A stretch of DNA of 63,421 bases, the filler included, from Folioceros fuciformis (lineage: Eukaryota): assembly GCA_049999805.1 (NCBI GenBank). It is 10 parts of 10 records of this genome, joined end to end, with 100 filler letters (N's around TTAATTAATTAA, not from the genome) between each part and the next. Parts side by side here need not be neighbours in the genome. Positions count along the whole stretch, not along the records: positions 13,680 to 39,730 come from JBNGIO010004825.1; 9 more parts are not named here. The stretch is one strand, 5' to 3'. The notes under the pieces were generated by a model. It worked only from the letters and a program-made list of their open reading frames with translations. It had not been told where the DNA came from and did no database searches. Below, in pieces: positions 20,501-56,807 of the stretch; the stretch's first letter is position 1; each line of letters starts with the position of its first letter. The position numbers were made by a program, and so were the translations under genes.

Positions 20501-23500
20501 CCTTTCGGCCTCTGCTGATGGAAGAGTTTAAAGCACAGCTGCAGCGAGCATATGAAGAGATGTCCATGACAGATGGAATGACTGCTGGCAGTCTTGTTTT
20601 GATGTCCCTAGAACGTGTCGATGATTTCCAGCGAGGCCAGTTCATAGCAGAGGCAGGCGCAGATGGTGCAGCAAGGGCGTGCTCGGAAAACGATTTGGTT
20701 TTACTGACTAAGAAGCCATTCACGGGTGACGAGCAGGGTGTTCATATACTTGCAAAGGTACGGAAGCATTTGTGGCATGGCTCTCAATGCTTTTGTCTTT
20801 GAAGGAGCTCAAGTGTTGGGGTTAAGGTTCTATCGCCTTAATAAGTATTAATATTGATTGCTTGGACAGGTTGACAAAAGGGAGAGAGATAAAGTGAACA
20901 AGGCTGCAATAACTTTGTTGTTGAGGCTCTACCTTAACCCAAAGAACTCTCGCCTTGCAAAGGCAAAAAGGCAATTGGTGGACCGCAGTAAGTGGTGTAT
21001 GACACGCTTGTTGAGCATTACACCACAGCTACGTGAGTTCCAAGCGCTTTCTGCAGTGGCCACTTCCCCGTTAATGCCAGTGATACTATGCCCATCACCT
21101 GATCTGTTGCGCTACGAGGGGTCAAGCCTGGGAGCCCAATCCGCTCACCTCCAGAATCTGCAAATTCTACCAGATCAGCTCCAGAGGAAATTAAGGTCAG
21201 AATATAATGAAAGTCAACTTGGTGCAGTTGCAGCGTCAGTTCGGAAGGCTTCAAGGACTGGCATGCATCACCTGGCTCTGGTACAGGGACCTCCAGGTAT
21301 GTTCATATTGTTTTGACCCCATATGATATATTTCTTACTGCAAATCGTGAAGGCTGCCTTAGTTCTAGGTGGGTTTTCAATAATTTAGCACCTCCCCATG
21401 TGAACATCTGGCAGCTGAAGGGCGCCAACTTATCTCCTTGGACATAAGCTCTTAACAGATTGCTCACTGAAAGCTGTTATGCTGGTAGGAACTGGCAAGA
21501 CCCGGACAATTGTGGCGATTGTCAGTGCATTGTTAGCACTGGGGAATAATGCTGAGCCTTCTGCCAACACGGAAGAGGCATCTCATTCACGAAACAAAGC
21601 TTCTCGACTTTCAAGTGAAGCAGCGTTGATCGCCAGGTCGTGGCAAGATGCCAGAGTGGCCAAGGATTTGATGCGGCAGGAGAAAAGTTCTGCTTCGCTG
21701 CGTAAGAAGCAGAGGGTCCTGGTCTGTGCACAATCCAATGCAGCAGTAGACGAGTTGGTGCTGAGATTCTGTAAACATGGACTCTATGGAGTAGATGGCC
21801 AAATCTTCAAGCCCGATCTAGTGCGGGTTGGTAATGCTAAAGGAGTCCATCCTGACTCGAACCATGTCTTCATTGACACTCTGGTTGATAAAAGACTCGG
21901 TGAAAGCAGTAAGGAAGACGAGGGTGAAACAGGGCAGGACCAGGCTGAAGTGCTGAAGTCCAGGTTTGAGAAGATTTGTGAGAGAATACAGGGGCTAGAG
22001 GCAGCAAAGTCAGAGTGCGAAGATACACCAGACAAGCTGGCAAATGCTGGTTCAGACTGTAGTGTGATGGAAGAGCAGTCAACAATGGAAGAGAAAGATG
22101 GGGGCCCTGATAATGATGCAAAGTGGCTACATGCTATCAAGAAACTAGGTAGGGAAGGAATTGATGGTATGTTGAAATCGCTGAAGAGGCAGAAACAGCA
22201 ATTGTATGTAGACCTGCGAGGGGCACAAAATAATAGGAATAGACTTTTTGAAGAGAATAAGTTGAAGAGAGAAGCTGTGCGGAGGGATATATTGAGGAAT
22301 GCAGAAATAGTGATAACGACGCTTAGTGGCTGCGGGGGAGATATCTACTCAACGTGCATGGAGTCATTCACTGGCATCAACAACTCAAAGCGACTTAATG
22401 ACTGCTTTTTCAATGCAGTTGTGATTGATGAAGCTGCGCAGGTTACTTTGTTCGACACATCAATTAGTTTCTCGTTTGTTCGTTTTCATGGCTGTGACTG
22501 AATGTGGGCGTTTCATACAGGCCCTGGAACCGGCAACTCTGATACCCTTGCAGCTTCTTGTACACCAGAAAGCAAGATGCATTATGGTAGGAGGTTTGAG
22601 GTGGTATGGATACATGTGCTTTGAGCTTGTGAAGTATTGCAACAGTCGATCTTGATTTAGTTCATACTTGTACCAGGTCGGGGACCCAAAGCAATTGCCT
22701 GCAACAGTTCTGTCGCAGACAGCCAGCAAGATGGCATTCGAGTGCAGTATGTTTGAGCGGCTGCAAAAGGCTGGCCACCCTGTCACCCTCCTTAGCATCC
22801 AAGTAAGTTTGCTGTAGGTTGTGACATATTTAATGATGAAAGGCCTCAACTAGGCGTGCGGGAGTGCAAGAGCGGTCGGTTTTTGTGTAATCAGTATGTG
22901 CTCCTACTGTTTCAGCTTACTCTGTTGTGCTTTAATTGCAGTACCGAATGCATCCAGAAATAAGGAAATTCCCTTCAGAACATTTTTACGAGAATCAGCT
23001 TATTGATGGGGAGACACTAACTGAAGAGAGCAGAACAGCAGCTTTCCACAAGGAGTGGTGCTTTAAACCCTACGTGTTTTTGGACGTGGTGGATGGACAG
23101 GCGAGAGCAAGGTCGGGGTCCGTGTCTCAGTCTCTTTCCAATGAAGCTGAGGCTGAGGCAGCAGTGGAGCTCGTTCGAGCATTAATTCAAAGGTAGCAAT
23201 TAATGGCGTATAAATTTCCGATGTAAGTAAGATTGTCTAGTGGGGGATGTTGCTAACGACCTGAATTCTGTAGGTATCCGTCGGAAAGTCTTTCAGGAAG
23301 GTTGGGAGTAATCACGCCCTACAAGCAGCAACTTGGTGTTCTACGTGACCGTTTTAAGAGGGCTTCGGGTCCCGTAGCGCTTCTGGATATTGAGTTTAAC
23401 ACAGTGGATGGATTCCAAGGTCGTGAGGTGGATATCGTGATCTTCTCAACAGTGCGTGCATCATCTGAAGCAAGTGGAAAGGGGGGAATCGGCTTTGTGG

Positions 23501-26075
23501 CTGATGTCCGGCGAATGAATGTTGCACTGACTCGTGCCCGGTTTTCACTTTGGATTGTTGGAAATGCAAGCACTCTCCAGGCAAATCCTTCGTGGGGCTC
23601 GTTGCTTGTGAACGCTAGAAGCAGAGGTGTGATATGGTCCGTACGAAGACCGTATACACCATTGTTTCTTGAATCTGGTCCACCCAACGGTAAGGAGAAA
23701 ATGAATATGGACTTCCACGAATCTACAGAGAGTGGCCTGCAGGTTGTCAAGTATACACAGAAGATGAACGTTCATTCACTGTATGAGCCCCAGAGCAGAA
23801 GGGCAGGATCTGATCAGGCCAGACCTGGTGGGGACCTTGGCAATGGTGGTGCACCGCACAAGCCCCAGAATAAAAGGGCAAGGTCTGATCAGTCAAGGCC
23901 GAGTGGGAACCTCAGCAATGGTGGTGCACTATCTGAGCCCCAGAACAAAAGAGTACGGTCTGATCAAGCCAGACCAAGTGGCGACGTTGGCAATGGTGGT
24001 GAAACAAAGCTGCCAGGTTTCGCATCTGAACCTAGGGTGACACAGGATGTGAGTGCGAAGCAGAATGGTGCTTCACCTGAAACTGAAGGGGCAAATGTGT
24101 CAGGTCTCAATGTTGTTGAGGGGCCTGAGGGAGGGCTGGGAGATTCGCTTCAGGGTAGAAAGGAAAGGCACGGCCACCAACAGAAATGCTCAAGCCTTTG
24201 TGACCCACAAGCGGGTAATCAGAGGGCCAGTCAGCCTGGTCAGAGACAGGGGAAAATTGCAAGGGATAATCAGCGAGAGGACGTGCGTGGCCAGAGACGT
24301 GTCGCTGGAAGTAGGTTCGACTCCCGCAAACAGGAAGGCCTGAACCACGACCGTCGTGACACAAAACCTGTGAGCAGCTCTTGTGAAAATGGAGGGAACG
24401 GGGAGGGGGGAAGCATTCATAGGCGTGTTGAAGAACCCAAGCTGGGAAGAGGCCAGCAGTGTCATGAGCGCAATCGACCCGCGGATAGGAGCTCTGGAGC
24501 TGCATCAAGGGAAGCAAACGAAAGGCAAGTTAAAAACAAGTGCAACTTCGAGGAGGCAGGAGATACTGACAGAGATAGACATGAGCACAGGATACGTGCT
24601 GAAGACCCTACGCCAGGCAGAAGTCGGTACGATTATGAGCACGAACTACGTGGTCCGGGCTCCCCTAGATTTGCGTCTGCAGAAAAGGGCGAAAGCCGAG
24701 ATAAGGGTGAGGGCAAAGTCAAGTTTGTGGGAGATGCTCATCAAGATAGACATAAGGACTCGAGGCGAGCTGAGGACCGAAAGTTTGGCAGAAGTCGGCA
24801 CCATCATGAGCTCGATCGATCTGTTCAGGTATCTGTAGAACGAGCTGAAAGGCATCCAAGCAGTGAGGTAGCTATAGAAAAGGATGAAAGACATCCAAAC
24901 AGAGGGTTGGCACGAGCACGAGATGACTGGCCAGACAAAGGGATTCAAGGTGAAACACGTAGAAGTAGGGAGGAGGAACAGGTCAGGACGGACAAGGGTC
25001 GGCAGCCAGGGGCTCACGAGGACGTCAGCGCGCATCACCACAGTGCAACGGCTTCTGGCAGGCGTTTGAACGAGGGCACGTTCCTGCACTCAAGACAGGA
25101 ATCAACACGGGGAGCAGTCGTAGCTGGGGTACAGGATCTGAAAGCGAGCAGACAACCAAGGAAAGACATCCCTAAGGGACCCAGCCCTGCAGGCTTAAGC
25201 AAAGGGCTGGACGATATTGCTTCTAGGAAACGACAGAGGCTAGAAGCTGAAGCAATCATGCGCAATGGCTTGCTTCCGTCATCAAGGTTGGCAGATGCCG
25301 ATCGTCTTCCAAAGTCTTCGATCAAAGAAGGTGAGTTATTCCCGCGGAGATCTGGGGTGATGTTTGGTGTCTTGGGGTGAAATACCTGCCACCCTTGACA
25401 ATGTTAGTGTCTGATTTGCCCACGAAGAGGTGTGGGTTAAAGATCGCATTCTTACGAGGGGCGAAATCTGGAGCATTGGTTTGTTTTGGAAGTGAGGTTT
25501 TCTTTGAGGGGGTTTTTACTGCTGTAGAAGTCCTTTTAATGGTTTTCAGGCCACACGTACTTGTGATCTTTCCTGTCTGAGGAAGTTTGCTCATGTGGGC
25601 CAATCTTGGATGGTGGTCATCAGGCCTGAAGGTAGATGGTTGTCGTCCTGGCTCACGTCAGTGTGTTGGTCCTTGTGTTGTTTGCTCTCGTCATTCTGTT
25701 GGTCTGTGTCCTGGCTCATGTCATTTTGCTGATCTGTGCTTAACAGGTAAGCGAGTTCAAGCAGATAGGAGCGCCGGGCGTCGACCCCCCAGCAACGATC
25801 CTGTTGTAATTGGTGGAAACAAGGTGCATCTCTGGTGGCTGATGAGAGAAGGAATGATTTTTTGAGCGAAGTACTTCTTCAGTGTTTGAACAGATTCGTT
25901 CAAGCACTCCTTTTTGATGTGTCAAGTTGCTGTTGGAGGAGAACAGGCGAAGGACGGCGCTGTGAAGGCCACCCCGGGGGGTACATCTGTGGATGACATT
26001 TTGGCGGGATTAGATTCGTTAAGCGCATCTCAAGTGAAGGGTAGCATGTATGGCGGACCGAAGGCTCGCGGGTAG
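14547..26075 (+). CDS. SEN1/senataxin-like Upf1-family SF1 RNA/DNA helicase (At1g16800-like), multi-exon
   Basis: ATG at 14547 (MEKEEDKLL...). N-terminal exons (LMQPLLEVYSNY...LWARISNELRTCMLCVRLHH) resemble At1g16800 as I recall it. Helicase motifs: LVQGPPG|TGKT (split by an intron), VLVCAQSNAAVDEL, VVIDEAAQ, VGDPKQLPATV, QYRMHPEI, GVITPY, NTVDGFQGRE, RRMNVALTRAR. Many short GT-AG introns. The 3' end is either the stop at 25380 or spliced exons to TAG 26073-26075 (uncertain). Confidence 0.9.
23782..24000 (+). repeat. 3 x 78-bp coding tandem repeat in the helicase C-terminal tail
   Basis: Encodes (E/K)PQxxRxxSDQxRPxGxxxNGG three times. Confidence 0.85.
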
Positions 26076-26940: not shown

Positions 26941-28548
26941 TCAGAGTGCTGCAGTAGGAAGGGTGACGTTTGCCACCTTGTTCCCTCGCTCGCCTTTGGC
27001 GTTCTCAGCGAACTTGAGGCTGGCTTCGTGCATCCCCTTCTCCCTCTCGGCCGCAGTGTATTCCGAGGAGTAGTAGGACTCCTCGGAAGCGGAAGCCCTG
27101 GCGGGAAAGAACATGCTGCCCCACTGCGGGAAGTGGACAACGACGATGAGCACGCAGCTGGCGATGATCATGATCCCCATATACTCGATCCCCTTCTCCG
27201 TGCTGTATGGGGCCTTGGTGAAGAAGATGAGCGTAGTGACGATGGAGCCAATGTTTCCTCCTGCCCCCGTCATCCCCGAAATGACTCCCAGAGACCTTCG
27301 GGATACGAAGGGGATAATCCCGAAAGTGGCCCCGCACGCGGCCTGGACGAAGAAGGAGAAGACGAGCATGACGAAAATGGATGCCGACAGAACCCCGAGC
27401 CTCCCGAGGGCGAGGCAGAAAATGCCGCCGGCGAGCTGGAGCAGGAAGAGGCACCAGAGGCGGCCCCGCATCCCGTATCGGGACGCAGACAGGTCGGAGA
27501 GCACGCCGCCCAGGGGCCGGGACACGATGTTGAATAGGCCGAATGTTGCCGCGATGAGGCCCGCCGTGTGCAGGTTTAGGTCGAACCTGTCGTAGTAGTA
27601 CTGCGCGATGACATTGTCCACGGTGAGCTCCACCCCGAAGCAGTAGCCGTAGGTGAGGGCGAACACCCAGGAGCGGTAGTTGGTGACGGCGTTCCAGATC
27701 ACCTTGCGAGACTTGTCGGCGGCTTTGGTGCCCCTCTTCTTGAGCGCGGCGTAATTGCCGTCGGGCAGGTCCTGGCCCAAGGTGAGGCAGACGAGGCCCA
27801 TAAAAATGTGGAAGAAGCCGGGGACGAAAAAGGAGAGCCTCCAGGCCGTGTAATCCTCGGCCCCCGCTCCCCTCATGATCTCATACACGAGCGGCATGAT
27901 GAGCTGCGTAGCGCCTCCTCCGAGGTTGCCCCATCCTGCTGCGGTACCGTTGGCCAGCCCCACAATCCGGCTGGTGAACATGGAGCTCATCCAGAACTGG
28001 CAGCTAACGAAGGTGGCGAGCGAGAAACCGATGCAGAAGCGCACCATGATGAAGCCCGTGACGGAGTTGACGCTGGCCATCCCGAACACGGCCGGGGCCG
28101 TAATCATGAGCAGGAAGGCGCTCCCGTAGCGAGGTCCAACCTTGTCGCACACGATCCCCATGAGGAGCCGGGAGAAGACGGAGCCTGACACGGACGCGAT
28201 GGCCGCGTTCCCGATATCGAACTTGTCCAGGTCCAGATTATCCCGGATGACAGGCATGAGCGGCGGGGCGGCGAAGGTGGAGGTGAAGCAGAGGAAGAAG
28301 GAGAACCAGGAAATATGAAAGGAGCGCATGTGCGGGGCTGCCAAGGACAGCAGCCGCAGCGTCTTGGCCTTGTGCTCCGAATCCACGGGAAGGGCGAAGT
28401 TGCTGCTCCCGTCGTGGTGGCCATCCTTCTCCTCCGCCCCCGCCACCATGATGGAGAACATCTGCTCCTTGCCCGTCACCCCGTGCAGGGAAGTCCCGGG
28501 CGCGCCCTTGCTGTCGTGTCCGATGTTAGACGAGTTCATTTCCGCCAT
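26941..28548 (-). CDS. NRT2: High-affinity nitrate transporter NRT2 (MFS/NNP family), intronless, 535 aa
   Basis: Single ORF with [37 protein letters not shown], the nitrate signature [28 protein letters not shown] and HFPQWGSMF. Confidence 0.97.
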
Positions 28549-34351: not shown

Positions 34352-35190
34352 TGTCGCGCAGCAGCCGCATAGCTGCATGCCTACCTAGCCTGTTTACCAA
34401 GCTAGGTCACTAAGCTTCCGCCTGCCTGCGATCTCCTTGGCCTTCGGCCTAGGAGCAACAATCCTAGCCTTAATTTGTCCTTGACCTATGGCCAAGAGCA
34501 AGGCTACAAAAAGAGACTAGGTTTGCCTAAGAGAGGCAGACCCGGGACCCGTCAACAGGTGAAATCAAGCTGGAAAATTCTCCCAACCTGGCAATGCAAC
34601 GAACCACAAGAACCTCTAGGAGACAAAGACACAGCAGGGACGAAGTATGGCTGTCTATTGGAACAAGACAAACATCAACAATCCGAGAATCCATGGCTGG
34701 GTGCCTACATATATAGGCAAAAACCCCCATGAGTTCTCGATGAAGTGTCCACCCGTATCGATGGTGGGCACTTTATAATCCTACTTTCCTTGATTTATGA
34801 TTTTTATGTATTTTCTAATATCTTCTAATATAAATCTGCTATCTATATATGCGGCATAGCACCGCGCCTTTCATGCACAACCATGCATATAGGTTGCATG
34901 CGCCATGACACATCACCTGCCACATGTCCACATACATCACATGTCATCCTTCATCTCCATATGTATGCATACATGGCACACATGCATATATGGCATACAT
35001 ATCATGTGCAGGCCATCCATGGGCCATGTACATGACATCATCAAGCACTTCAGCATCAGGGCTTATGCCCGAGATGCTCCAGTCAGTATCTAGTCATTTC
35101 AGCATTCAGGGCTTATGCCCAGGATGCTCTAGTCAGTATCCAGTCATAGAGTCTTAGGTGCTCTGTTTCCCATACAGCAACAGCATGACA
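34352..35190 (+). mobile_element. Solo LTR (family C), 839 bp, with 4-bp TSD CAGC
   Basis: TGTCGCGC...GCATGACA termini. CAGC at 34348-34351 and 35191-35194. Both ends are confirmed by the copies at 13886 and 7985. Confidence 0.88.
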
Positions 35191-35763
35191 CAGCTGCGAC
35201 TTGGGAGGAAAGGATGCATATATGGTGAACATAGCGACTTCTCTAGATGGGCAAGATGAGGAAGATGAAGAGGATATGTTGTGGGTTATGCTACACATGC
35301 GTAAATTGTATGCTAAAGAGTGTAGTAACGTCAAGAGCTGGAAGAGGGTGGATGTAAGTGGAGTATTAGTTGAAATTTTTAGAGAGCTTGAGAAACGGCA
35401 TATTGAGTTTTAACTAGATGATACGATTTAGCCTTATACAAATTTAAAGGAGATAGTCTGTAAACTGGAACTTGTTTGTAATAAACTTGTGACTTTGAGT
35501 TCGTCTGTGTATGGGCTGTCTTGCTATGCCGCTAAACATTGTACTCATGCATGGTTCATTAGTTAATAATACTCACACCACATATGTAGAAAAGTGGAAT
35601 TGCAAAGTGAAAGCCCTAAAACGACGAATATAGCAAACGAAGACGAAAACACCAACCTTAAGAACCAAGGAAGATGAAACACCAACCCATACCCACACAC
35701 ACGAAGAACAAAAGAACTCTTGACACAGCAAATACGAATTCGAAACGATAAGAGAAAAAAGAT

Positions 35764-35813
35764 GGATATATATATATATATATACATGTAGAGACAAAGA
35801 GAGAGAGAGAGAG
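35764..35813. repeat. (TA)n and (GA)n microsatellites
   Basis: Read directly from the sequence. Confidence 0.85.
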
Positions 35814-36476
35814 CTGGAACTACAAAGCCTACAAGCCCCAAATGATCGAAAGAAGAAAACTAACCCCAATAAGCAAATGAATGTGAAAATACCAAGCTAA
35901 AGAACTAAAACAATGAACAAAAGAGGGTGAAATACCAAACCCATGGCCAAAAGAAGGCCGAGGACCAACGAGAACGATGAAACACTAATCCAACAAACAC
36001 GAAGAGAAAAAACCCTAGATAATACGAATTTAGAACCTCAAAGGAAATAGATGGACATAGAAAAAACCAAGACCCAAGAAACAACAAATACAAAGAATGA
36101 TAGTGACAAATGAAAGACACCAACCTTAATAATTATGAGAATGATGTCAACAAAGATGAAGATTGTAACCTTAAGATTTTTTTTCTTTACATTTGTGGGT
36201 TCAGTGTTTGGTCCTCCGAAGATTTGGGTTATAATTATATAAAATCTTGATAAAAAAACGTAGACGAAAGAGAAGAAATAGAGAGGGATTAGTAAAGAAG
36301 GAAACGAGGGAATGGGATTGTGACTGGGAGGGGTTGGGATAAAACCCACCCCGTCAACGAAAGGACAAACCTGTCTGACATTTGTTGGCTCACAATTGGT
36401 GGAAGACAACGTTCCTCCCCACTTGGAATTCACGATGCCACGATAAGGCAAGGAAAATTGGAAGTTGAGGGTGAAC

Positions 36477-39400
36477 ATGTGGTGCGTCCCGCCGCATGAA
36501 GGCCCAGCGTCCATGCGATACGACCCAACTTCCGATAAGGCAGGATGTTTTGCCATCCGCATTGGAGCACTGTCCGCACTACGGGTGCTTTGCTCGAGGC
36601 TCAATCCTGGTACGCAGGCGTCCGGCCACCGCCAGCCAAGGTTGCAATGCTTCTCAACTTCAGAGGGCGCTGCCTACAAGATGGCCGCAGTTTGGCAACC
36701 GGACTCCTTGTGGACCCAACAGATCGGTGGGTGTACAGGGATGCTACCAGGAGCTCCCTGTCACTTCGTCGTAGAGAGTCAAGCGCTGGACGACAACCCA
36801 GTCTCCAGGTGGAGCAGTGTGACGAAGCCAGCCCTTCCGTCAGAATGCGTGGCTGCGGCTGTGCAAGGATTTCACAGCGATGGTCGTCGCCAGGAGCAGG
36901 AGCTGTTGTGGCGAAATTTTTTTCTGAATCCTGCTGTTTGGTGGGACAACAGGCGACGCAAGAAGGGCTTTTATTCACCCGACTTTCGGCGTAAGGGATC
37001 CAACGAGGCTCTCTGGTTAAACAGCATATTGACGCCAGCTTGGGTGGATGAGCGACTCGTTGCTTGGGATTTGCAGATGGGTCACGGTGCGTCTCCTCTC
37101 AAGTGGAGCTCTGTCGATAAGTCTGACCCCGCCAGGCGTGCAGAATCTAAGAGCGGCGTTGTAACGCCTGCTACTGTACGCACTTTATGCCAGCAGGGGA
37201 AGCTGGATGAAGCGTTTGCAGCCCTGCAAACTTTGGCAGAGAGAGGGGACGGTGGTGTATCTAAGTCTCTGTTGTATACTGTCCTGAAACTGTGTGCAGT
37301 GAAAAAGAATGTGGCTGTAGGGGAACTAGTTCATAATCTGTGTGTGAAACTTGGGTACGAGGCAGATACGTACTTGGGTAACCATATCTTGCGCATGTAT
37401 GCATGTGGAGGGCGGCTGCAGGAAGCTATGGATGTGTTTACCAGGGTGGGAAAGCCGGATGCCTTCATGTGGGGTTCCATAATCTCCGCACATTGTAAAC
37501 ATGGGAGGCCTAACGAGGCGGTCAAATTATACCATGAGATGCGTAGTTCAGGTTTGAGGGCAGATGCTCACGTGTTTGTAGCTGCCCTTCAAGCTTGTGC
37601 ACTTGCCGCAGACTTGGAGTCTGGCAGAGATGTGCACTTCGATGTGTTGCGCAGTGGCATTCCTCCTGACTTGTTTGTTGGCAACAGCCTCGTGGACATG
37701 TACGCGAAATGTGGCGAACTGGAAGATGCACGGGGGGTTTTCGATAGCCTGGGCACAAAGGATGTGGTGACGTGGAATGCCCTTATCGCTGGGTATGCTC
37801 AACAAGGGTTCGCTCAGGATGCGCTTCTGTTGTACGAGAAGATGGTTCAGGAGGCCCTGGTTGTGGCTGACCATGTTACTTTCATTTGCCTTCTGAAGGC
37901 CTGTGCAAATAGTGGTGCGTTGCAGAGGGGCAAGGAGCTCCACTCAGAGATTGTGGAAAGAGGATTGCTAAAGAACAGTTTGGTCGCCAACTGCCTGGTT
38001 GGCATGTATGCAAAATGTGGCCAGCTGAGAGATGCACGCCTCGTTTTTGACACATTGGCTTCCAAGGACGTCGTGACATGGAATGCCCTCATGGCTGGGT
38101 ATGCGCAACAGGGGCTTGCCCAAGAGGCCCTTGTTTTGTACGGGCAGATGGAGCAGGAGGGGCGGATTGTGGCTGACCATGTTACTTTTGCTTCCCTTCT
38201 GAAGGCCTGTGCAAATGCTAGATGTTTGCAGAAGGGCAGGCAGCTACACTCTCAAATTGTGGCAAGAGGACTGGTAGATAACATAGTGATTGGCACCTGC
38301 CTAGTGGACATGTATGCAAAATGTGGCGAGCTGGAAGCTGCTCTTAGAGTTTTCGACTGCTTGGCCACAAAAAACGAGGTGACGTGGACGGCCCTCATAG
38401 CTGGCTATGCAAACTGTGGCAATATGGAAGGTGCACGCCAGGTTTTTGACACTTTAGCGACGAGGGATGTGGTGACATGGAATGCCTTGATTGCGGGGTA
38501 TGTACAGCAAGGGCTCGGTCAAGAAGCGCTGGCTCTTTATGAACGAATGGAGCAGGAGGGCCATAATGTGGCTAACCACGTGACTTTTGCTTGCCTCCTT
38601 AAGGCTTGTGCCAGCGCTGGTGCTGTACAAAAGGGCAAGCAGCTGCACTCACAGATTGTAGAAAGAGGGCTGCTAGACAAGAAACCTGTCGGTACCTGCC
38701 TGGTGGACATGTATGCAAAATGTGGTGAGCTGAAAGCGGCACGCCAGGTTTTTGACTGCCTTGCCACAAAGGACGTAGTGTCGTGGAACGCTCTGATTTC
38801 TGGGTGTGGCGTTTGTGATGAAGGTCGGGAGGCACTTGCTTGTTTTGAAGAGATGTTGGCCGCTGGTATTCAGCCTGACGTTGCTACTTTCACTTGCCTT
38901 TTAGTAGCATGTAGTCACGAGGGACTGGTGAGTGAGGGTCGCAAGCATTTCAATTCTATGGTCGAACAGCATGGGATGGAACCTGCTAGTGAGCATTACA
39001 TTTGCATGATTGATCTCCTCGGGCGTGCAGGCCATTTAGATGAGGCAGAGAACATGCTCTTATCGTTTGACGGCCAAAGTAATGTTGTGGGGTTGAGGTC
39101 TTTGCTCAGTGCCTGCAAAAAGCACGGGGATGTCGAGAGGGCGACTCGATGTTTTGAAAGCCTTGTTAGGCTGGAGCCTCAGCATGCAGCGGCATATGTG
39201 CTCATGGCCAATGCCTTTGCGGATGCAGGTAGGTGGACCGATGTAGAAAAGATTGAAAGACAGAGACTGGCAGCAGGGGCTAAGAAAAAGCATGCGGTGG
39301 CTGGCATCGAGGTGAACATGCAGGTCCATACGTTTCTGGTGGGAGAATACGACAACGATATTTCGCTCAAGGTAGACAGCTTAGATGAAAGTCGAAGGCA

Positions 39401-39689
39401 GGAGGTGGGTCACTTGCCACACACAAAGTTGGTGTTGAAGGCGGTATCTGAAAAGGAAAAGGAAGATCTGCTCTGTGGTCATGCCGAGAAGCTAGCTCTG
39501 GCGTATGGTCTCTTGAACACTCCAAGCGGCACACCTCTGATGGTGACAAAGAATCTACGAATGTGCAGTGACTGCCACAGTTCAACGGAGATCATGTCGA
39601 GGATTGAAAGGAGAGACATTGTTGTGAGGGATGGATACCGTGTGCATCGGTTCGCATCTGGTTTGTGCAGCTGTAAGGGTAGACCGTGA
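36477..39689 (+). CDS. PLS-class PPR protein with N-terminal PDF (OSB-like) motif and C-terminal E1-E2-DYW:KP (GRP) deaminase; candidate U-to-C organellar RNA editing factor; intronless
   Basis: Long intact ORF (first ATG 36477; alternatives 36513 and 36681). PDF motif at 36903-37058. 18 PPR motifs L-S-P-L-S-P-L-S-P-L-S-SS-P-L-S-P2-L2-S2, then E1/E2, KKKHAVAGIEV, HAEKLA, KNLRMCSDCH, and terminal CSCKGRP*. Confidence 0.93.
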   Translation: MWCVPPHEGPASMRYDPTSDKAGCFAIRIGALSALRVLCSRLNPGTQASGHRQPRLQCFSTSEGAAYKMAAVWQPDSLWTQQIGGCTGMLPGAPCHFVVESQALDDNPVSRWSSVTKPALPSECVAAAVQGFHSDGRRQEQELLWRNFFLNPAVWWDNRRRKKGFYSPDFRRKGSNEALWLNSILTPAWVDERLVAWDLQMGHGASPLKWSSVDKSDPARRAESKSGVVTPATVRTLCQQGKLDEAFAALQTLAERGDGGVSKSLLYTVLKLCAVKKNVAVGELVHNLCVKLGYEADTYLGNHILRMYACGGRLQEAMDVFTRVGKPDAFMWGSIISAHCKHGRPNEAVKLYHEMRSSGLRADAHVFVAALQACALAADLESGRDVHFDVLRSGIPPDLFVGNSLVDMYAKCGELEDARGVFDSLGTKDVVTWNALIAGYAQQGFAQDALLLYEKMVQEALVVADHVTFICLLKACANSGALQRGKELHSEIVERGLLKNSLVANCLVGMYAKCGQLRDARLVFDTLASKDVVTWNALMAGYAQQGLAQEALVLYGQMEQEGRIVADHVTFASLLKACANARCLQKGRQLHSQIVARGLVDNIVIGTCLVDMYAKCGELEAALRVFDCLATKNEVTWTALIAGYANCGNMEGARQVFDTLATRDVVTWNALIAGYVQQGLGQEALALYERMEQEGHNVANHVTFACLLKACASAGAVQKGKQLHSQIVERGLLDKKPVGTCLVDMYAKCGELKAARQVFDCLATKDVVSWNALISGCGVCDEGREALACFEEMLAAGIQPDVATFTCLLVACSHEGLVSEGRKHFNSMVEQHGMEPASEHYICMIDLLGRAGHLDEAENMLLSFDGQSNVVGLRSLLSACKKHGDVERATRCFESLVRLEPQHAAAYVLMANAFADAGRWTDVEKIERQRLAAGAKKKHAVAGIEVNMQVHTFLVGEYDNDISLKVDSLDESRRQEVGHLPHTKLVLKAVSEKEKEDLLCGHAEKLALAYGLLNTPSGTPLMVTKNLRMCSDCHSSTEIMSRIERRDIVVRDGYRVHRFASGLCSCKGRP

Positions 39690-39830
39690 CAACCAAGATC
39701 ACTTCTCCAGTATGCATCAGTCAAAGTTTGNNNNNNNNNNNNNNNNNNNNNNNNNNNNNNNNNNNNNNNNNNNNTTAATTAATTAANNNNNNNNNNNNNN
39801 NNNNNNNNNNNNNNNNNNNNNNNNNNNNNN

Positions 39831-46543: not shown

Positions 46544-49500
46544 CTCAAAGTAGTTCACGAAAGTGTCAAAACTTATCTCTACCAAGCGACTTAGTAAAGA
46601 TATATGTTACCTGGTCTTTGGTCTTCACGTGCCAAAGATCCATCTTCTCAGATAATACCACTTTCTTGATGAAATGATAATTACTTCTATGTGCTTCAAA
46701 CGAGCATGAAACACAGGATTAGTAGCCAACCTCATGCTACTCATGTTGTCACAGTAGATTGTAACCTTGCTGTTCACTATATTTCCAAGATCATGTAGCA
46801 ACTTCTGCAACCAAGCTGCTTCATAGGCTGCCATTGCAGCTCCTCGATACTCTGCTTCTGTGCTTGACAAAGCAACTGTCGGTTGTTTCTTGCTTTGCCA
46901 GCTGATCATACTACTTCCCAAACAAAATGCATATCCACTGGTTGATCTTCTGTCATACGCACAACCAGCCCAATCAGCATTTGTATATCCTGTCAGTTCA
47001 AGATGCTTTCTACGCTCATAGAGCAATCCAAACTCAATAGTTCTTTTCACATATCTCATGATTCTTCTAACTGCATCCAAGTGCGGTTTCCTTGGGTTCT
47101 GCATGAATTGATTAATCAATCCCACTGCATAACTTAAGTTAGGACGTGTGATAGTCAAGTAGATCAAACTTCCGACCATCTGTCGATACATAGTCACATT
47201 TTCCAGCTCAGCTCCTACATCCATCTGCAGCTTGACATTTTGCTCCAATGGTGTATCCATCACTTTGCAATCTGCCATGCCATACTTTTGCAACATATCC
47301 TTAGCATATTGTTTTTGGAATAGCCAGATTCCTTGAGGTGTAGACACAACCTCAATTCCCAAGAAGTATCTGAGTTCACCAAGATCCTTCACCTTGAACT
47401 CTTTTTGCAGATTCTCCTTGACATTTGCAATACCATCTACATCATCTCCTGTGATGATCAGGTCGTCAACATAAACGACAAGACACACTTGTCCTACCTT
47501 GGTCTGTTTTACAAACAGACTGTGATCTGCATCTTCAATCACAAACCCTCGCTCCTTCAAATAGCTTGTGATACGAGCATTCCATGCTCTAGGTGCCTGT
47601 TTGAATCCATACAATGCCTTCTTCAGTTTGCATACGTACGTTGGAAACTTAGGATGAACATAGCCTTCAGGCTGTTCCACGTACACTTCCTCCTGCAACT
47701 CACCATTCAAGAAAGCATTCTTGACACCCATTTGCCATAACTTCCATCCTTTAGCTGCTGCTAATGCTATGACTATCCTTATAGTTGTCATCTTGGCTAC
47801 TGGACTTAAGTTTTCCTCATAATCAAGACCATATTGTTGTGCATATCCCTTTGCAACCAACCTGGCCTTGTAACGCTCCAGCAGCGTTCCATCTGACTTG
47901 AACTTCAGCTTGTACACCCACTTAGAATCAATAGGAACCTTGCCATCAAGCAATTGAACCAAATCCCACGTTCCGTTCTCAACTAATGCTGAGTATTCTT
48001 CATCCATGGCTTAATACCACTTATCATCTGTCACTGCCTCAGCAAACTTGGTTGGCTCCTTACAAGCTGTGACCCTTGTCATATACGCATAATGTTGCAC
48101 ATTATAGCTTGTATGGGTGTACTTATCAATGGGTTTCCTAACCCTCTCAGATCTCCTTGGTCTTGGTTCAGTTTGAACTTGCCTTGCATATTGTTCCTCT
48201 TTAGCACCTGGTGTTTCCACAGACGGAATGCCAAACTCATTGTCAATGCTCTCACTACTTGAGGATTCATATCCCTCATTTCCAATTTTGCTGCTTTCTA
48301 CTCTCCCCCTCACTGACATGTCCGGGTCAGTGGTCTTGGGTTTACCATTCCACAGTCTTCCAAACCATGGATTCACCATTGGTGATCCACCATTGGTCAC
48401 ATCCTCACTCTTTGTTGGAGTACTCTTAGTAGTACTCTCCCCTGTGGGTTCGTCCTAGGGTAGTGCAACTGAGTTGCTATACTAGGAGGCTAACTCATCA
48501 AATACCACATCCCTGCTTATTAGGATCTCATGTGTGGATGGCACATAACACTTATATGCCTTCCTATTTCGTGCATACCCTAGAAAAACACTCTTCACTG
48601 CTTTAGGATCCAACTTCCTACACTTATCATCAAGTACATGCACATATGCAATGTACCCAAACACTTTCAAGTACCTAATATCTGGCTTATAGCCATACAG
48701 TCTCTCAATTGGTGTAGCATCATGAATTCCTACAGTAGGAGTTCGATTTAGTACATAAACTGCACTCATCACTGCTTCTGCCCAATAATCATTAGGTAAG
48801 CACTTCTCATGCAGCATTGCCCTTGCTATTTCCATGACTACCTTGTTCTTCCTCTCTACAACACCATTCTGTTGTGGTGTGTATTTGCAAGTCAACAGTC
48901 TTCAAATACCATGATCTGCAAGATACCTGTCAAACTCATTTGAGACATATTCTCCCCCTCCATCTGATCTTAGACAAGAGATGGAGCAGCTGAATTCATT
49001 TTCAGCATGCTTTTTGAAGTCCTTGAAAGACTTGAACATTTCATCCTTATGCTTCAATATGTACAGCCACGTGTACTTGCTGAAATCATCAATGAAGGAG
49101 ACATAGTAGTGGGCTCCTCCAAACTATGCATTCTGTGAAGGATCCCATACATCAGAGTGTATCAATTGCAAAGGTCTCAAGCTGTTATGCACGTGTTGCA
49201 CAAATGAAAACCTTGACTGTTTTCTAAATTGACATGCAGAACACACAGGACCAAGATCAGCATACTTGAACTTGGGCAATCCTTCCACCATGCTTTTCTA
49301 TTGCATAGATTTCAGCTTCTCTATGTTCACATGCCCAATCCTCTTATGCCATATTTCAACATCACATATGGCACCTGCATCATTTGTAAGCATTGATTCA
49401 TTTAGCTCTAGAATGGATGCATCCAGAATGAACATTCATCCATTCCTACTACCCTTAGCAATCAGTTTGCGCCCTCTGTCATATTCTTCAATAAAGCATC

Positions 49501-52814: not shown

Positions 52815-54425
52815 CAGAATTGGAAACGGGCGTCGTAAGTGCTGCAACCGTGAGCATGTTATGTCGTCAGGGGAAGCTTTCTGAGGCCGTTGGAGCCCTG
52901 GAATCTCTGGCGCAGTCAGACTCTGGCGTTTCTCAGTCTCTGTTTTACACAGTGTTAAAACTCTGTACAGCTAAGAAGGATTTGGTGGTGGGGCGACGAG
53001 TTCATGATCTCACTGTCAAACTTGGGTACGAGTCGAATGCATATTTGGGGAACCATATCCTGCGGATGTATGCATGTGGAGGTAGGCTAAAGGAGGCGAT
53101 GGATGTGTTCAACAGGGTAGGGAAACCGAATGTCTTCATGTGGTTTTCCATAATCTCTGCACATGCTAAGCACGGGAAGGCGAAGGAGGCCATACAACTG
53201 TACCATGAAATGCGTAGGTCAGAAGTGAAGGCGAATGGTTATGTCTTTGTAGCCGCCCTTCAAGCTTGTGCATTTGCTGCCGACTTAGAATCTGGCAGAA
53301 CAGTGCACCGCGAAGTGTTGCGCAGTGGCTTCCGTACTGATTTGTTTGTTAACAGCTGCTTGGTGGACATGTATGCAAAATGTGGCCGAATGAAAGATGC
53401 GCGCCAGGTTTTTGATAGCATGAACACGAAGGATGTGGTGACATGGACAGTCCTGATCGCTGGGTATGCACAGCAAGGGCTCGGGCAAGAGGCACTTGTT
53501 GTGTATGGACAAATGGAGGAGGCAGGCCTCGTTGTGGCTGACTATGTTACTTTTGCTTGCCTGCTGAAGGCGTGTGGAAGCACTGGTGCGTTGCAGAAGG
53601 GCAGGGAGCTTCACTCACAGATTGTGAAGAGAGGTCTCCTGGATGATGTACTGGTGGGCACCTGTCTGGTGGACATGTATGCAAAATGTGGTGAGGTGGA
53701 AGAAGCACGCCAAGTTTTTGACAGTATGAACACAAAGAATGTGGTTACATGGACAGCCCTGATTGCAGGGTATGCGCAGCAAGGACTCGGCCAACAGGCC
53801 CTTGTTGTGTATGGACAGATGGAGGAGGCAGGCGTCGTTTTGGCTGATGATGTTACTTTTGCTTGCATTCTGAAGGCGTGTGCAAACATTGGTGCCTTGC
53901 AGAAAGGCAGGGACCTTCACTCACAGATTGTCGACAGAGAACTGCTGGATAATATTGTCGTGGGAACCTGCCTGGTGGACATGTATGCGAAATGTGGTGA
54001 GGTCAAATATGCACGCCAGGTTTTTGACAGCATGGCCACTAAAGATGTGGTGACATGGAATGCCCTGATTGCAGGGTATTCCCAGCAAGGACTCGGCCAA
54101 GAGGCTCTTGTTGTGTATGGACAAATGGAGGATACAGGCCTCGTTTTGGCTGACACTGTTACTTTTGCTTGCCTTCTGAAGGCGTGTGGAAGCACTGGTG
54201 CCTTGCAGAAGGGCAGGGAGCTGCACTCAAAGATTGTCAACAGAGGTCTGCTGGATGATGTAGTAGTGGGCACCTGCCTAGTGGACATGTATGCAAAATG
54301 TGGTGAGGTGGAAGATGCACGCCAGGTTTTTGACAGCATGAACACAAAGAATGTGGTTACATGGACAGCCCTGATTGCTGGGTATGGTGCTTGTGATGAA
54401 GGTCGCAAGGCGCTAGCTTGTTTTG
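52815..54425 (+). CDS. PLS-class PPR protein, partial (gaps at both ends); paralog of 36477-39689
   Basis: Open frame across the whole piece. It aligns with the first PPR gene from ~37141, has 306-bp P-L-S repeat units, and ends in the P2 motif (GACDEGRKALACF). Confidence 0.88.
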
Positions 54426-54525
54426 NNNNNNNNNNNNNNNNNNNNNNNNNNNNNNNNNNNNNNNNNNNNTTAATTAATTAANNNNNNNNNNNNNNNNNNN
54501 NNNNNNNNNNNNNNNNNNNNNNNNN

Positions 54526-56807
54526 ACCCCCGTTGCTTGACCAGCAACTCTCCCCACCTGGTTGCTACGACCACCCGTGCCCATAGGATTTCGAAGAATG
54601 GAAGGATGGGTTGTCTTGGAATATTGCTGCCCTTGGGAAAACTCCTGAATTTGGTAGGAGTCCTCCTCTTCTTCCCCTTCACAGGCCAACAAATGCACCT
54701 TGGCCCCTTGACAATGGGTCTTGGTGTGGCCTTGCTCACCACAAATGGAGCAAAACAAGTTAGCCCTGCCACTAGTTGCAGGCCTCCTTCTCTCATTTTC
54801 CTTGACAACATGGAGGTGAAACTTCTCAAACTTGCTGATCATCTCCTCCATCTTGGACTCCTACTGCTCCACTTTCTTGGCTGCAACCTCAGCCTCTTTC
54901 TTGACCTGCTCCACCTCCCTCTTGGCACTAGCCACCTCTTGCTTGGCCTTGGCCAGATCCTTTGCCTTTCTTGCTTCCTTCTTCTGCCTAGCCACCTCTT
55001 GCTCCTTCTTCTTCAGTCTTTTCTTGACAACCTCGTCCTCCGAGGACTCCTCCTCTAGGCTGTCCCCTACTGAAGATGAAGAGGTCTCCGCTGCTGATTC
55101 TTCTGAAGAATCGCTCTCCTCGGAGGAATCTTCATCCGAGGAAGATGACTCCCTCTTCTTCTTCCCCTTCCTAGGCCTGTTCTTCTTCTTGTCCTTCTCC
55201 CTCACTCTCTCCTTCTCCTTCTTGGATCTCCCTTTGCCCCACGGATGAGACTCCTCATAATTGAGGGCTGCCCTTATAGCCCTGTCCACATCTTTTTCTG
55301 CGAACAATTTCACATGGCCCCCCATCCTCGATCCTAAGCCTCCAGCGAACCACCTAATGGCTGGTAAGTCTGAATGAGGTCCACAGCGATCTTGTAGGCT
55401 GTGGAACCTCTCCACATAGGCCTGTAAGGTCTCCTTCCTCCTCCTCAAGGCCTCCAGCTTGGACAGCATGTAGCCCTCTACGTCTATCCCCCTGAACTGC
55501 TCACAAAAGGCCCTCTTCAATACATCAAAAGTTGCTAGAAATGTGCCGGCCTTAAGGTACTCCCTCCTGTACCACTTGGCAGACCCTCCACGCAATACAC
55601 CATAGAACAATTGGATGCGTTGTGCATCCGCTGATTCCTGGTTAGCAAGGGTCAGCTGCTCAAACCTCTCCACAAATTCATCCGGGTCCTCATACCCCTT
55701 CTTCTCCCCATACAAGGGGTACAACTGCTTGGTGGACGTTGCAACAGCTGGGGCCGCCATGGGGCCTGCACTCACCACTGCAGTTGCGGATCCAGCAGCT
55801 CCAGCAACTAGAGTTGGGCTGATGTTGCTGAATCCTTTAGCCCCTGCACTCCTAATCACCTGCACCAGTCCAGGATGAAGACCAAGGAGCAGACTTGGAT
55901 TAGGTTGCCCTGGATTAGGCTTCCCCCCAATAGCTTAAACTTGAGGGTCTTGTTCCAACGTGATTGATTCCCCCAAGATCTGTTGGTTGCTTGCCCCTCT
56001 CCTCCTCTTCGCTAGTGTATGCCCTGGCTGTACCCTCCTTAGCTCCCTCTCCACTGCTCTTTGCTCACACTCCAATACTTGCTGCTGCCTCCTTGCTTGA
56101 GCTTGAGCTCCCCCTTCAAAGCTAGAGTTGAAATCTTCAACTCCTATGCGGGGCATCCATCAACCCTGCCACATTCCCTTGTACAGTCCCCTATCCAGGT
56201 CAGTCCTCTCCAAACCTTGACAGCAATGTCACTCCCCGGCAACGGCGCCAAAATGTGGAGTGATTTCTTGCACCCAAGAACCACCAAAGGACCACACATC
56301 CCCTTATTATCATTGCAGCACTATGATTCGCTCCCAAGGGAGTGAACTAGTGTCAAGGTTTTCTACAATCTTCCCACACTGCCCTAATCTAACCCTATCT
56401 ATCAGCCGGCTCCTAGCCCTAGCTTCACTACAGCAAAAAAAAATCAGAATCCTTAGCCTTGTCTTCAACGCCAACCATAGCTCCAGCTGAATGAGAACTC
56501 TAGCATCATCTTCAGCTCCCACCTACAACTCCAAGTATCCACCGCCTCAACAACTGAGAGGAGGTCCCAACCCTAGCCTTGGCCTCCACTCTCAGCCCTA
56601 AATGCTAGCCACCTCAGCACACCAACTCCACACTCCAGCACTTCAAATCTCTACTCCAGCACTTCAGCTTTTCAACCCTTCATCCCTTCACCCTCACGGT
56701 TCACTCCTAGATTTTGGAACACAATTGCCCCTCACTTGCAGTCCTTGAGGCAGGGATGTGCAGACCCAGGCTGCATAGCCTCCTTGGCTCACAGCCCTGC
56801 AATCCGT
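54526..56807 (-). mobile_element. Athila/Tat-like Ty3/gypsy 5' end: family-B LTR (56254-56807), PBS (56233-56250), gag with zinc knuckle
   Basis: The - strand PBS TGGCGCCGTTGCCGGGGA is next to the LTR. Gag 55865-54861 (EDPDEFVERFE...LRGGSAKWY) continues to CSICGEQGHTKTHC. Confidence 0.85.

Follow-up and report, generated by a model that had tools for sequence, protein, structure and literature searches.

The window analysed in this work (63,421 nucleotides, filler included, from the hornwort Folioceros fuciformis) contains what is apparently an intronless nuclear gene for an organelle RNA-editing factor, in which an OSB-type PDF motif stands ahead of the PLS-class PPR tract in one reading frame. 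The usual description of PLS-PPR editing factors comprises a presequence, PPR repeats and E/DYW. Our preferred reading, to which we give a probability of about 45%, is that the PDF domain would act in PLS editing factors as a built-in accessory module binding single-stranded nucleic acids without sequence specificity. As judged from homologous proteins, the fusion is neither unique to the window nor specific to DYW:KP proteins; PDF occurs on PLS-class PPR proteins from hornworts (the window), lycophytes and ferns irrespective of their C-terminus.

On the plus strand, an uninterrupted frame (36447-39689) extends from the stop codon at 36444-36446 to the one at 39687-39689. Translation of 36903-39689 places the motif peptide LLWRNFF...AWVDERL (36903-37058) in the same frame as the PPR tract and ends with CSCKGRP and the stop. 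The initial annotation had put a 52-aa motif ahead of the PPR repeats in a single frame, and exactly the peptide that it quoted was recovered; its numbering (aa 147-198) agrees with an ORF starting from TTG (36465-39689). The coding sequence is likely 36513-39689 (1058 aa), with alternative starts at 36477, 36681 and 36741. All four in-frame ATGs (36477, 36513, 36681, 36741) lie upstream of the PDF motif, and the first Met downstream of it is at 37077. The following features were assigned:

36447..39689, plus strand: whole frame, stop-to-stop ORF with the likely CDS 36513-39689
36513..36890, plus strand: N-terminal region without family match, presumed organelle presequence and spacer, ~126 aa from M36513
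36891..37070, plus strand: PDF domain with the 52-aa motif at 36903-37058 (homology searches, alignment A1, AlphaFold2)
37089..37130, plus strand: linker of low predicted order (AlphaFold pLDDT <50)
37131..39122, plus strand: PLS-class PPR tract, the putative sequence-specific RNA-binding part (Pfam PPR/PPR_1/PPR_2/PPR_3, PDB matches)
39123..39308, plus strand: E motif (PF20431, aa 887-948 of the frame from 36465, E 9.3e-13)
39408..39689, plus strand: DYW-type deaminase of the GRP (DYW:KP-like) kind, including the stop codon (PF14432, aa 982-1072, E 1.7e-34)

Zaegel et al. reportedly described in 2006 the PDF motif of the plant organellar ssDNA-binding proteins OSB1-4. The motif of the window has the same length (~50 aa) and the same conserved residues as the one in OSB1-4 (LW..F..P..W.D.R..K....PDF....LW....P.WV), including the signature Pro-Asp-Phe at residues 30-32 of the 60-aa segment, and is present in a single copy in the window according to a six-frame pattern scan. 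A phmmer search with 72 aa (36873-37088) against 1,835,955,588 representatives retrieved 567 proteins at E≤1e-3, of which 122 reached E≤1e-10 and 17 reached E≤1e-30. A profile search retrieved 1041 proteins at E≤1e-3 (8000 scored candidates), and, by our count, 25 of the 120 matches listed for it are named OSB1/2/3 or 'organellar single-stranded DNA binding protein'. In BLASTP, the motif is 48-53% identical to each of the four repeats of 'protein OSB1, mitochondrial isoform X2' of Eutrema salsugineum (E 5e-16 to 2e-14) and 38-40% identical to the repeats of a 440-aa Arabidopsis thaliana record. Furthermore, it holds all 14 invariant columns of an alignment of 14 PPR-linked motifs (A1), in which lycophytes, ferns and records without source name are represented besides the window. 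Word-index protein searches with the N-terminal region (against proteins of 590-1880 aa and of 171-546 aa) returned no match, a result of their insensitivity, since the exhaustive and profile searches gave hundreds of matches. The initial annotation was thus right about the homology (phmmer, profile search, BLASTP with OSB1 and the Arabidopsis repeats), and these comparisons show a genuine PDF motif of the OSB type.

In OSB proteins, this motif is C-terminal and occurs in one to five copies after an SSB-like OB-fold, whereas in the window one copy is located N-terminally to the PPR tract. Ten non-PPR matches were scanned for the SSB OB-fold PF00436: six were positive (three above the Pfam cut-off, three below) and four negative. 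Unlike OSB proteins, the window frame has no OB-fold (PF00436 is absent from the N-terminal 230 aa at E≤1); the encoded protein is therefore not an OSB, and the motif is what both have in common. Pfam search of the frame from 36465 revealed PPR (11 stretches), the E motif (aa 887-948) and DYW_deaminase (aa 982-1072), while neither Pfam (E≤1) nor NCBIfam gave any match within the N-terminal 230 aa. Domain surveys would overlook the PDF domain, since no Pfam model matched it.

For the PDF domain alone, AlphaFold2 predicts with high confidence (mean pLDDT 92.1, pTM 0.74) a fold in the order helix, three short strands, helix (elements H2-12, E17-19, E32-34 and H50-59). In the context of the segment starting at 36873, pLDDT drops below 50 at residues 73-86 with high-confidence flanks on both sides, and the helical PPR repeats begin at model residue 86. 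These models show the PDF domain as an accessory module that folds on its own and is connected to the PPR tract by a flexible linker. With the motif profile, no PDB sequence matched at E≤10, and Foldseek found no PDB structure at E≤0.001 that could back a binding mode as a solved analogue; for a query of 60 aa, such negatives carry little weight.

Among the matches listed, at least 44 cluster representatives from ferns and lycophytes combine PDF with PPR (13 of the 150 listed phmmer matches and 33 of the 120 listed profile-search matches, two being in both). Their sources are Selaginella, Diphasiastrum, Adiantum, Ceratopteris and Pteridium, besides two records without source name; no record named as hornwort was found among the matches whose sources were examined. 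Diphasiastrum complanatum has at least 30 PDF+PPR clusters among the matches listed, and PDF+PPR proteins of Diphasiastrum and Pteridium carry two to three tandem PDFs. Other examples are XP_024517303 (Selaginella), KAI5076972 (Adiantum) and KAH7415344 (Ceratopteris). In the proteomes of Selaginella, Diphasiastrum, Adiantum and Ceratopteris, these proteins are annotated as 'hypothetical' or as generic PPR proteins, and their presence there speaks against the fusion being rare. Since the Pteridium sequences are ORFs from transcriptome contigs, PDF and PPR are on one transcript contig in this fern. The N-terminal order is the same as in the window: in alignment A2, PDF, linker and a first PPR with 'LCxxGxL' are collinear between the window protein and 11 proteins from ferns and lycophytes, and the motif identity with the window reaches 61% in Adiantum P0072. 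However, the lycophyte and fern proteins end in the E motif or a canonical DYW, whereas the window protein ends in GRP. Indeed, 40 of the 44 representatives lack a DYW match, and the other four have the canonical PG-box/HSE/DYW (among the matches listed).

In a tree of 595 PDF instances (59 columns), the PPR-linked motifs cluster, with 13 changes compared with a shuffled mean of 79.7; such clustering is expected because of the near-copies in Diphasiastrum. The window motif has no robust placement in this tree, which fits one or several fusion events. A description of the fusion was not found in the literature searched, in agreement with the initial annotation, which knew of no functional one; mention in Gerke 2020, Gutmann 2020 or Zaegel 2006 is possible. 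In the available part of a 2026 survey of the OSB family, PDF outside OSB proteins is not mentioned.

The C-terminal part of the window protein has the features of an editing deaminase. In the PDB, its PPR part matches PLS9-PPR (5iww, E 3.4e-83) and a synthetic PPR-DYW protein (9kfx, E 1.1e-206). The PLS tract, the E motif, and HAE and CSDCH aligned at the HxE and CxxC zinc ligands place it in the PLS-class PPR-E-DYW proteins. Gerke (2020) and Gutmann (2020) are said to distinguish a GRP subgroup among the hornwort DYW:KP editing factors. Alignment with 9kfx, 7o4e and 7w86 showed HAE (not HSE), KNLRM with Met at the V95-equivalent, CSDCH, a four-residue gap in place of xHP and the C-terminal GRP, as well as Glu where PG types carry Lys (the K103-equivalent, a position set by the alignment with a possible error of one). 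In all these features, and in the PLS tract and E motif, the protein resembles the GRP hornwort DYW:KP editors. In contrast to DYW:KP, the place of the PG box is occupied by K-H-A rather than Lys-Pro (KKKHAVAGIEV vs KKEPGCSWIEV). Translation, Pfam and the deaminase alignment thus agree with the earlier assignment of the frame to a PLS-PPR-E-DYW protein of the GRP kind. The domain is therefore assigned as a GRP-type, DYW:KP-like deaminase, with U-to-C activity only putative. The available text of PMC9478123 names the GRP-type features, does not mention an N-terminal PDF domain in the GRP editors that it describes, and demonstrates U-to-C editing only for the designer proteins KP2, KP3 and KP6.

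The window protein pairs PDF with a GRP-type domain, and the initial annotation took PDF for a helper specific to DYW:KP proteins and a missing requirement for efficient U-to-C editing. This is very improbable. The counts given above do not support the link to DYW:KP: all four PDF+PPR+DYW proteins elsewhere are of the PG/HSE/DYW type, and 40 of 44 representatives have no DYW at all (among the matches listed). Selaginella moellendorffii has one PDF+PPR protein and, to our knowledge, no U-to-C editing, which also counts against such a helper. PDF+PPR proteins were found only in lycophytes, ferns and the window (among the matches listed). These are clades with DYW:KP as far as the available text of PMC9478123 goes, and this would favour the idea. 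In the same text, KP2 and KP3, consisting only of PPR and C-terminal domains, perform U-to-C editing in E. coli at ~26% and ~22%, respectively (PMC9478123); these rates are low enough to leave room for a helper, but PDF is evidently not required for U-to-C conversion.

The accessory-module reading can be put as follows. The gene product would consist, in this order, of a presequence, one OSB-type PDF, a flexible linker, the PLS PPR tract, the E motif and a GRP-type DYW:KP deaminase. A PPR tract lies on its RNA in parallel orientation, the N-terminus facing the RNA 5' end; a short-tethered N-terminal PDF would thus be positioned just 5' of the cis-element, where it could provide extra affinity and keep this stretch single-stranded during sequence recognition by the PPR tract and action of the deaminase ~4 nt downstream of that tract. 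Moss PPR56 and PPR65 work in E. coli without PDF. The same is reported for designer GRP and fern KP editors (PMC9478123), and the module would therefore not be essential to catalysis.

The ssDNA binding of the PDF motif is predicted from its OSB relatives. The PDF motif of AtOSB1 suffices for ssDNA binding (PMC6963530), and AtOSB1 and AtOSB2 prefer ssDNA to RNA and dsDNA (PMC4166229), as far as the available texts go. This preference argues against an RNA ligand and for a nucleoid tether, in which an OSB-like ssDNA preference would be kept and the editor anchored at transcription bubbles, R-loops or replication forks, with editing of nascent transcripts. The window motif retains all residues common to the OSB repeats, and the flexible linker is compatible with tethering. 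However, the 40 of 44 representatives without deaminase (among the matches listed) mean that any role must also suit trans-acting specificity factors, and the two to three tandem copies in Diphasiastrum fit higher affinity for any single strand, DNA or RNA alike; we regard the tether as possible but somewhat unlikely. Rather improbable is a purely protein-binding PDF that would oligomerise or recruit partners such as DYW donors, OSB proteins or further PPR proteins with a PDF. In favour of this, AtOSB2 forms a tetramer (PMC6963530), DYW is missing from most PDF+PPR proteins (among the matches listed), which would need a deaminase in trans, and the many conserved aromatics of the small fold probably form its core rather than its surface. 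Nevertheless, ssDNA binding is the sole PDF activity reported in the available texts (PMC6963530, PMC4166229).

The initial annotation had suggested that PDF could tether the editor to nucleoids and may replace MORF/ORRM-type helpers. By analogy only, a single-strand-binding PDF would resemble the MORF/RIP and ORRM proteins of seed-plant editosomes in its proposed role of assisting PLS PPR proteins without itself being sequence-specific. The latter are separate polypeptides with unrelated folds, whereas PDF is present in cis. We know of no MORF/RIP or ORRM proteins outside seed plants. Tentatively, and with rather low expectation, we suggest that PDF could be an unrecognised ancient accessory domain of PLS editors in the heavily editing hornworts, lycophytes and ferns, helping with single strands in cis as MORF/ORRM-type proteins do in trans in seed plants. 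If so, adding PDF to designer PPR editors would raise their efficiency or alter target access. In any case, dozens of PLS-PPR proteins in three seedless lineages carry a domain that folds separately and is related to ssDNA-binding proteins, and the range of the PDF motif is widened beyond OSB proteins. If PDF binds single strands, it could explain, in a way open to testing, how these lineages manage editing at hundreds to thousands of sites without MORF-type helpers. It would then also be a candidate for addition to programmable editors (C-to-U and U-to-C), of which those of the GRP type reach only ~22-26% in the available text of PMC9478123.

We predict that the PDF domain is part of the mature protein. 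It may be lost with a long presequence, as the motif begins 130 aa from M36513; some fern and lycophyte models begin 3-10 aa ahead of the motif, which we count against the accessory-module reading with respect to targeting. The motif could also be untranslated, or a decaying relic of domain shuffling. Its N-terminal position with several candidate starts, the function of editors without PDF (PMC9478123) and the fact that no sequencing run is on record as RNA are consistent with such a lack of any mature role. We consider this quite unlikely in view of the position of all four ATGs, the complete set of A1-invariant columns, the confident AlphaFold fold and the two to three copies kept in Diphasiastrum. 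Contigs from a second organism (run X2, RNA by guess only) are ~90% identical over the PDF motif (22 contigs at 36905), and the 12 differences listed there spare all 14 invariant positions, which also argues against decay. In another run (X1, likewise RNA by guess only), a 910-nt contig equals 36491-37400 with no differences and no gaps, joining the motif to the first PPRs. Contigs of X1 and X2 do not cover 35000-36421, which we do not take as evidence for a transcript start. The GC content is 0.39 before and 0.57 after ~36500, and drops to 0.37 beyond 39500.

The PDF-PPR gene lies in a frame that is open between the stop codons at 36444-36446 and 39687-39689. Translation of 36903-39689 (+) starts with the 52-aa PDF peptide and continues without a stop through PPR-like repeats to the terminal CSCKGRP. 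Pfam identifies 11 PPR stretches, an E motif and a DYW deaminase in this frame; the motif and the PPR-DYW body thus share one uninterrupted frame, as the initial annotation had stated.

36447-39689, plus strand: open frame of the PDF-PPR gene
36903-37058, plus strand: PDF motif
37089-37130 (residues 73-86 of the modelled 276-aa segment), plus strand: low-confidence linker, pLDDT <50
aa 887-948 of the frame from 36465, plus strand: E motif (Pfam)
aa 982-1072 of the frame from 36465, plus strand: DYW_deaminase (Pfam)

The first 230 aa of the frame have no family match in Pfam or NCBIfam. Matches to PDB chains confirm the protein body, among them a synthetic PPR-DYW protein (9kfx, E 1.1e-206) and PLS9-PPR (5iww, E 3.4e-83). 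GC content increases from 0.39 to 0.57 near 36500 and drops again past 39500. In-frame ATGs at 36477, 36513, 36681 and 36741 all precede the motif; the following Met is at 37077.

The 63,421-nt window has a single copy of the motif. With a 72-aa query (36873-37088), phmmer retrieved 567 of 1.84 billion representative proteins at E<=1e-3 (122 at E<=1e-10, 17 at E<=1e-30), most of them with 2-13 matched stretches. Furthermore, a profile of 14 PPR-linked PDF motifs (alignment A1) picked out 1041 of 8000 scored candidates at E<=1e-3, and 25 of the 120 matches listed (by our count) have a source name that includes either "organellar single-stranded DNA binding protein" or OSB1, OSB2 or OSB3. Each of four repeats of a Eutrema record named OSB1 is 48-53% identical to the window motif (BLASTP); the repeats of a 440-aa Arabidopsis record are 38-40% identical. 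The proposed identity as an OSB PDF motif is therefore borne out. This motif of 50 aa, named after Pro-Asp-Phe, is described as confined to green plants (PMC6963530, PMC4166229). Among ten scanned non-PPR matches, six have an SSB OB-fold (three above and three below the Pfam cut-off) and four have no match. As Pfam finds no OB-fold in the window frame, its product shares the PDF motif but is no OSB protein. PDF motifs are also present in a kinesin-domain gene model of Coptis chinensis (P0056, 1526 aa, three PDF stretches) and in a Kingdonia uniflora model (P0002, 1160 aa, 13 PDF stretches and a weak SSB match); here neighbouring genes may have been fused in annotation, or the expansions may be genuine.

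The fusion is not restricted to the window. PPR repeats are present in 13 of the 150 phmmer matches listed (Pfam positive in 8 of 10 proteins scanned, phmmer with the window PPR tract in 13 of 13) and PF01535 in 33 of the 120 A1-profile matches listed; with two common to both lists, this gives at least 44 distinct PDF+PPR cluster representatives. These are counts among the matches listed, which were ordered by total score and so favour multi-copy proteins. Diphasiastrum complanatum contributes 30 of the 33 profile matches and also P0107; the others come from the lycophyte Selaginella moellendorffii, from the ferns Adiantum capillus-veneris, Ceratopteris richardii and Pteridium aquilinum, and from two further records. 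The matches listed in either search include no PPR protein of a seed plant, moss or liverwort. In all these representatives, the motif precedes the PPR tract. It is single in Selaginella and most fern representatives and present in two or three copies in most Diphasiastrum ones; P0006 and the Pteridium representative P0168 have three, and P0173 has four matches (two partial, two at 635-734). In an alignment (A2) of the window N-terminus with 11 fern and lycophyte proteins, the order is collinear: PDF, variable linker and first PPR starting with LCxxGxL. In Pteridium, whose records derive from transcriptome contigs, PDF and PPR are on one transcript contig. In several models (e.g., P0136, P0093 and P0052 from Selaginella, Ceratopteris and Adiantum), the motif begins only 3-10 residues past the initial Met, too close for a presequence to fit; either these models are truncated or targeting differs. 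The PDF+PPR proteins are publicly available, annotated as hypothetical or generic PPR proteins.

The window DYW domain was aligned with PG-type domains (9kfx, 7o4e, 7w86) and four Diphasiastrum DYW domains. It has HAE where PG-type domains have HSE, KNLRM in place of KNLRV, Glu at the PG-type Lys position after CxDCH-x3, four residues missing at the xHP place and a GRP rather than DYW end. These are precisely the features listed for DYW:KP and its hornwort GRP subgroup in PMC9478123. The PG-box place (39270-39300) reads K-H-A instead of K-P, and the rest fits the GRP subgroup; from its sequence, we class the protein as GRP-type and DYW:KP-like, one defining feature (the K-P box) not being literally present. 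The initial annotation had tied the PDF motif to DYW:KP and proposed it as a possible missing requirement for U-to-C editing, i.e., as a KP-specific helper. The window protein is indeed the sole PDF and KP-like combination among the matches listed. However, 40 of the 44 representatives have no match to its DYW domain, and the other four (P0170, P0190, P0226 and P0228, all Diphasiastrum) have PG-type boxes (PGCSWIEV, RGCSWIEV or PGQSWIEV), HSE, CxDCH and a DYW end; no hornwort-named record is among the motif matches with source checked, and the closest motifs listed (61-63% identity) belong to a fern record and one further record. Moreover, the GRP-based designer editors KP2 and KP3, consisting of PPR and C-terminal domains only, are described as performing U-to-C editing in E. 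coli at ~26% and ~22%, and KP6 at ~50% (PMC9478123). The PDF motif is thus dispensable for the reaction, and a KP-specific role is a lesser alternative. For the PDF domain, the analysis thus establishes homology, the predicted fold, its place in the protein, its conservation in three lineages and its independence of deaminase type.

AlphaFold2 (A1 alignment) predicts a confident fold for the 60-aa PDF segment (mean pLDDT 92.1, pTM 0.74): helix 2-12, short strands 17-19 and 32-34, bridge 40-41 and helix 50-59. Neither a sequence search nor Foldseek (E<=0.001) found an analogue in the PDB. When 276 aa (36873-37700, A2 alignment) are modelled, the same fold is followed by the low-confidence stretch and then by regular PPR helices, so that in these models the PDF domain looks like a separate, flexibly tethered module. 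PPR tracts bind RNA with the protein N-terminus at the RNA 5' end. A tethered PDF domain would therefore occupy the 5' flank of the cis-element; it would bind single-stranded nucleic acid without sequence specificity and could raise affinity or hold the RNA open. According to reviews, the PDF motif of AtOSB1 suffices for ssDNA binding (PMC6963530), and AtOSB1/2 prefer ssDNA over dsDNA or RNA (PMC4166229). The main rival is that an OSB-like ssDNA preference is kept and anchors the editing factor at nucleoids for co-transcriptional editing. A protein-protein module is a lesser alternative to nucleic-acid binding.

A 910-nt contig of run X1 (RNA by guess) is identical to 36491-37400 with no differences and no gaps; it therefore joins the motif directly to the first PPRs, and it includes all the in-frame ATGs except 36477. 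In run X2, from a second organism (also RNA by guess), a 228-nt contig aligns to 36875-37097 with 22 differences, and position 36905 is covered by 22 contigs; in X1, another 3-4 contigs differ from the window at 37028 and 37033. These differing contigs point to paralogues carrying the motif. None of the runs listed is on record as RNA. That the motif plays no role in the mature protein is another lesser reading. At least 12 contig differences fall in the motif; the 12 listed alter none of the 14 invariant positions, which is a hint only. One of them changes Thr to Lys, which five A1 motifs, from ferns and further records, have at that place.

A full-text literature search found neither "PDF motif" with DYW nor "PDF domain" with PPR. 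DYW and OSB co-occur as whole words in an Arabidopsis localisation study, where OSB appears once, and "PDF motif" and pentatricopeptide co-occur in a review where PPR means RNA polymerases. A survey published in 2026, which covers 59 species and 182 OSB genes, mentions neither PPR nor hornworts in its main text (PMC13393729). No description of the fusion was found in the full texts searched. PDF+PPR is a real and conserved variant architecture of a known family, apparently undescribed so far.

Elsewhere in the window, paired 44-N runs separated by 12 bases occur at nine places; the one at 39731-39830 starts 42 bases past the stop codon of the PDF-PPR gene and interrupts its 3' flank. A second PPR frame (52820-54481 (+), 553 aa) matches PPR families only and has N runs on both sides; a pattern scan of the window found no PDF pattern near it. 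Three ORFs in 19309-25380 (+) match SEN1 beta-barrel, AAA_11 and AAA_12 and probably belong, as exons, to a single SEN1/UPF1-like helicase gene. An ORF for a Major Facilitator Superfamily transporter lies at 26941-28548 (-), and retrotransposon ORFs (two RVT_2 reverse transcriptase, one gag/Ty3-capsid-like) at 46625-48007 (-), 61923-63155 (-) and 54861-55865 (-).
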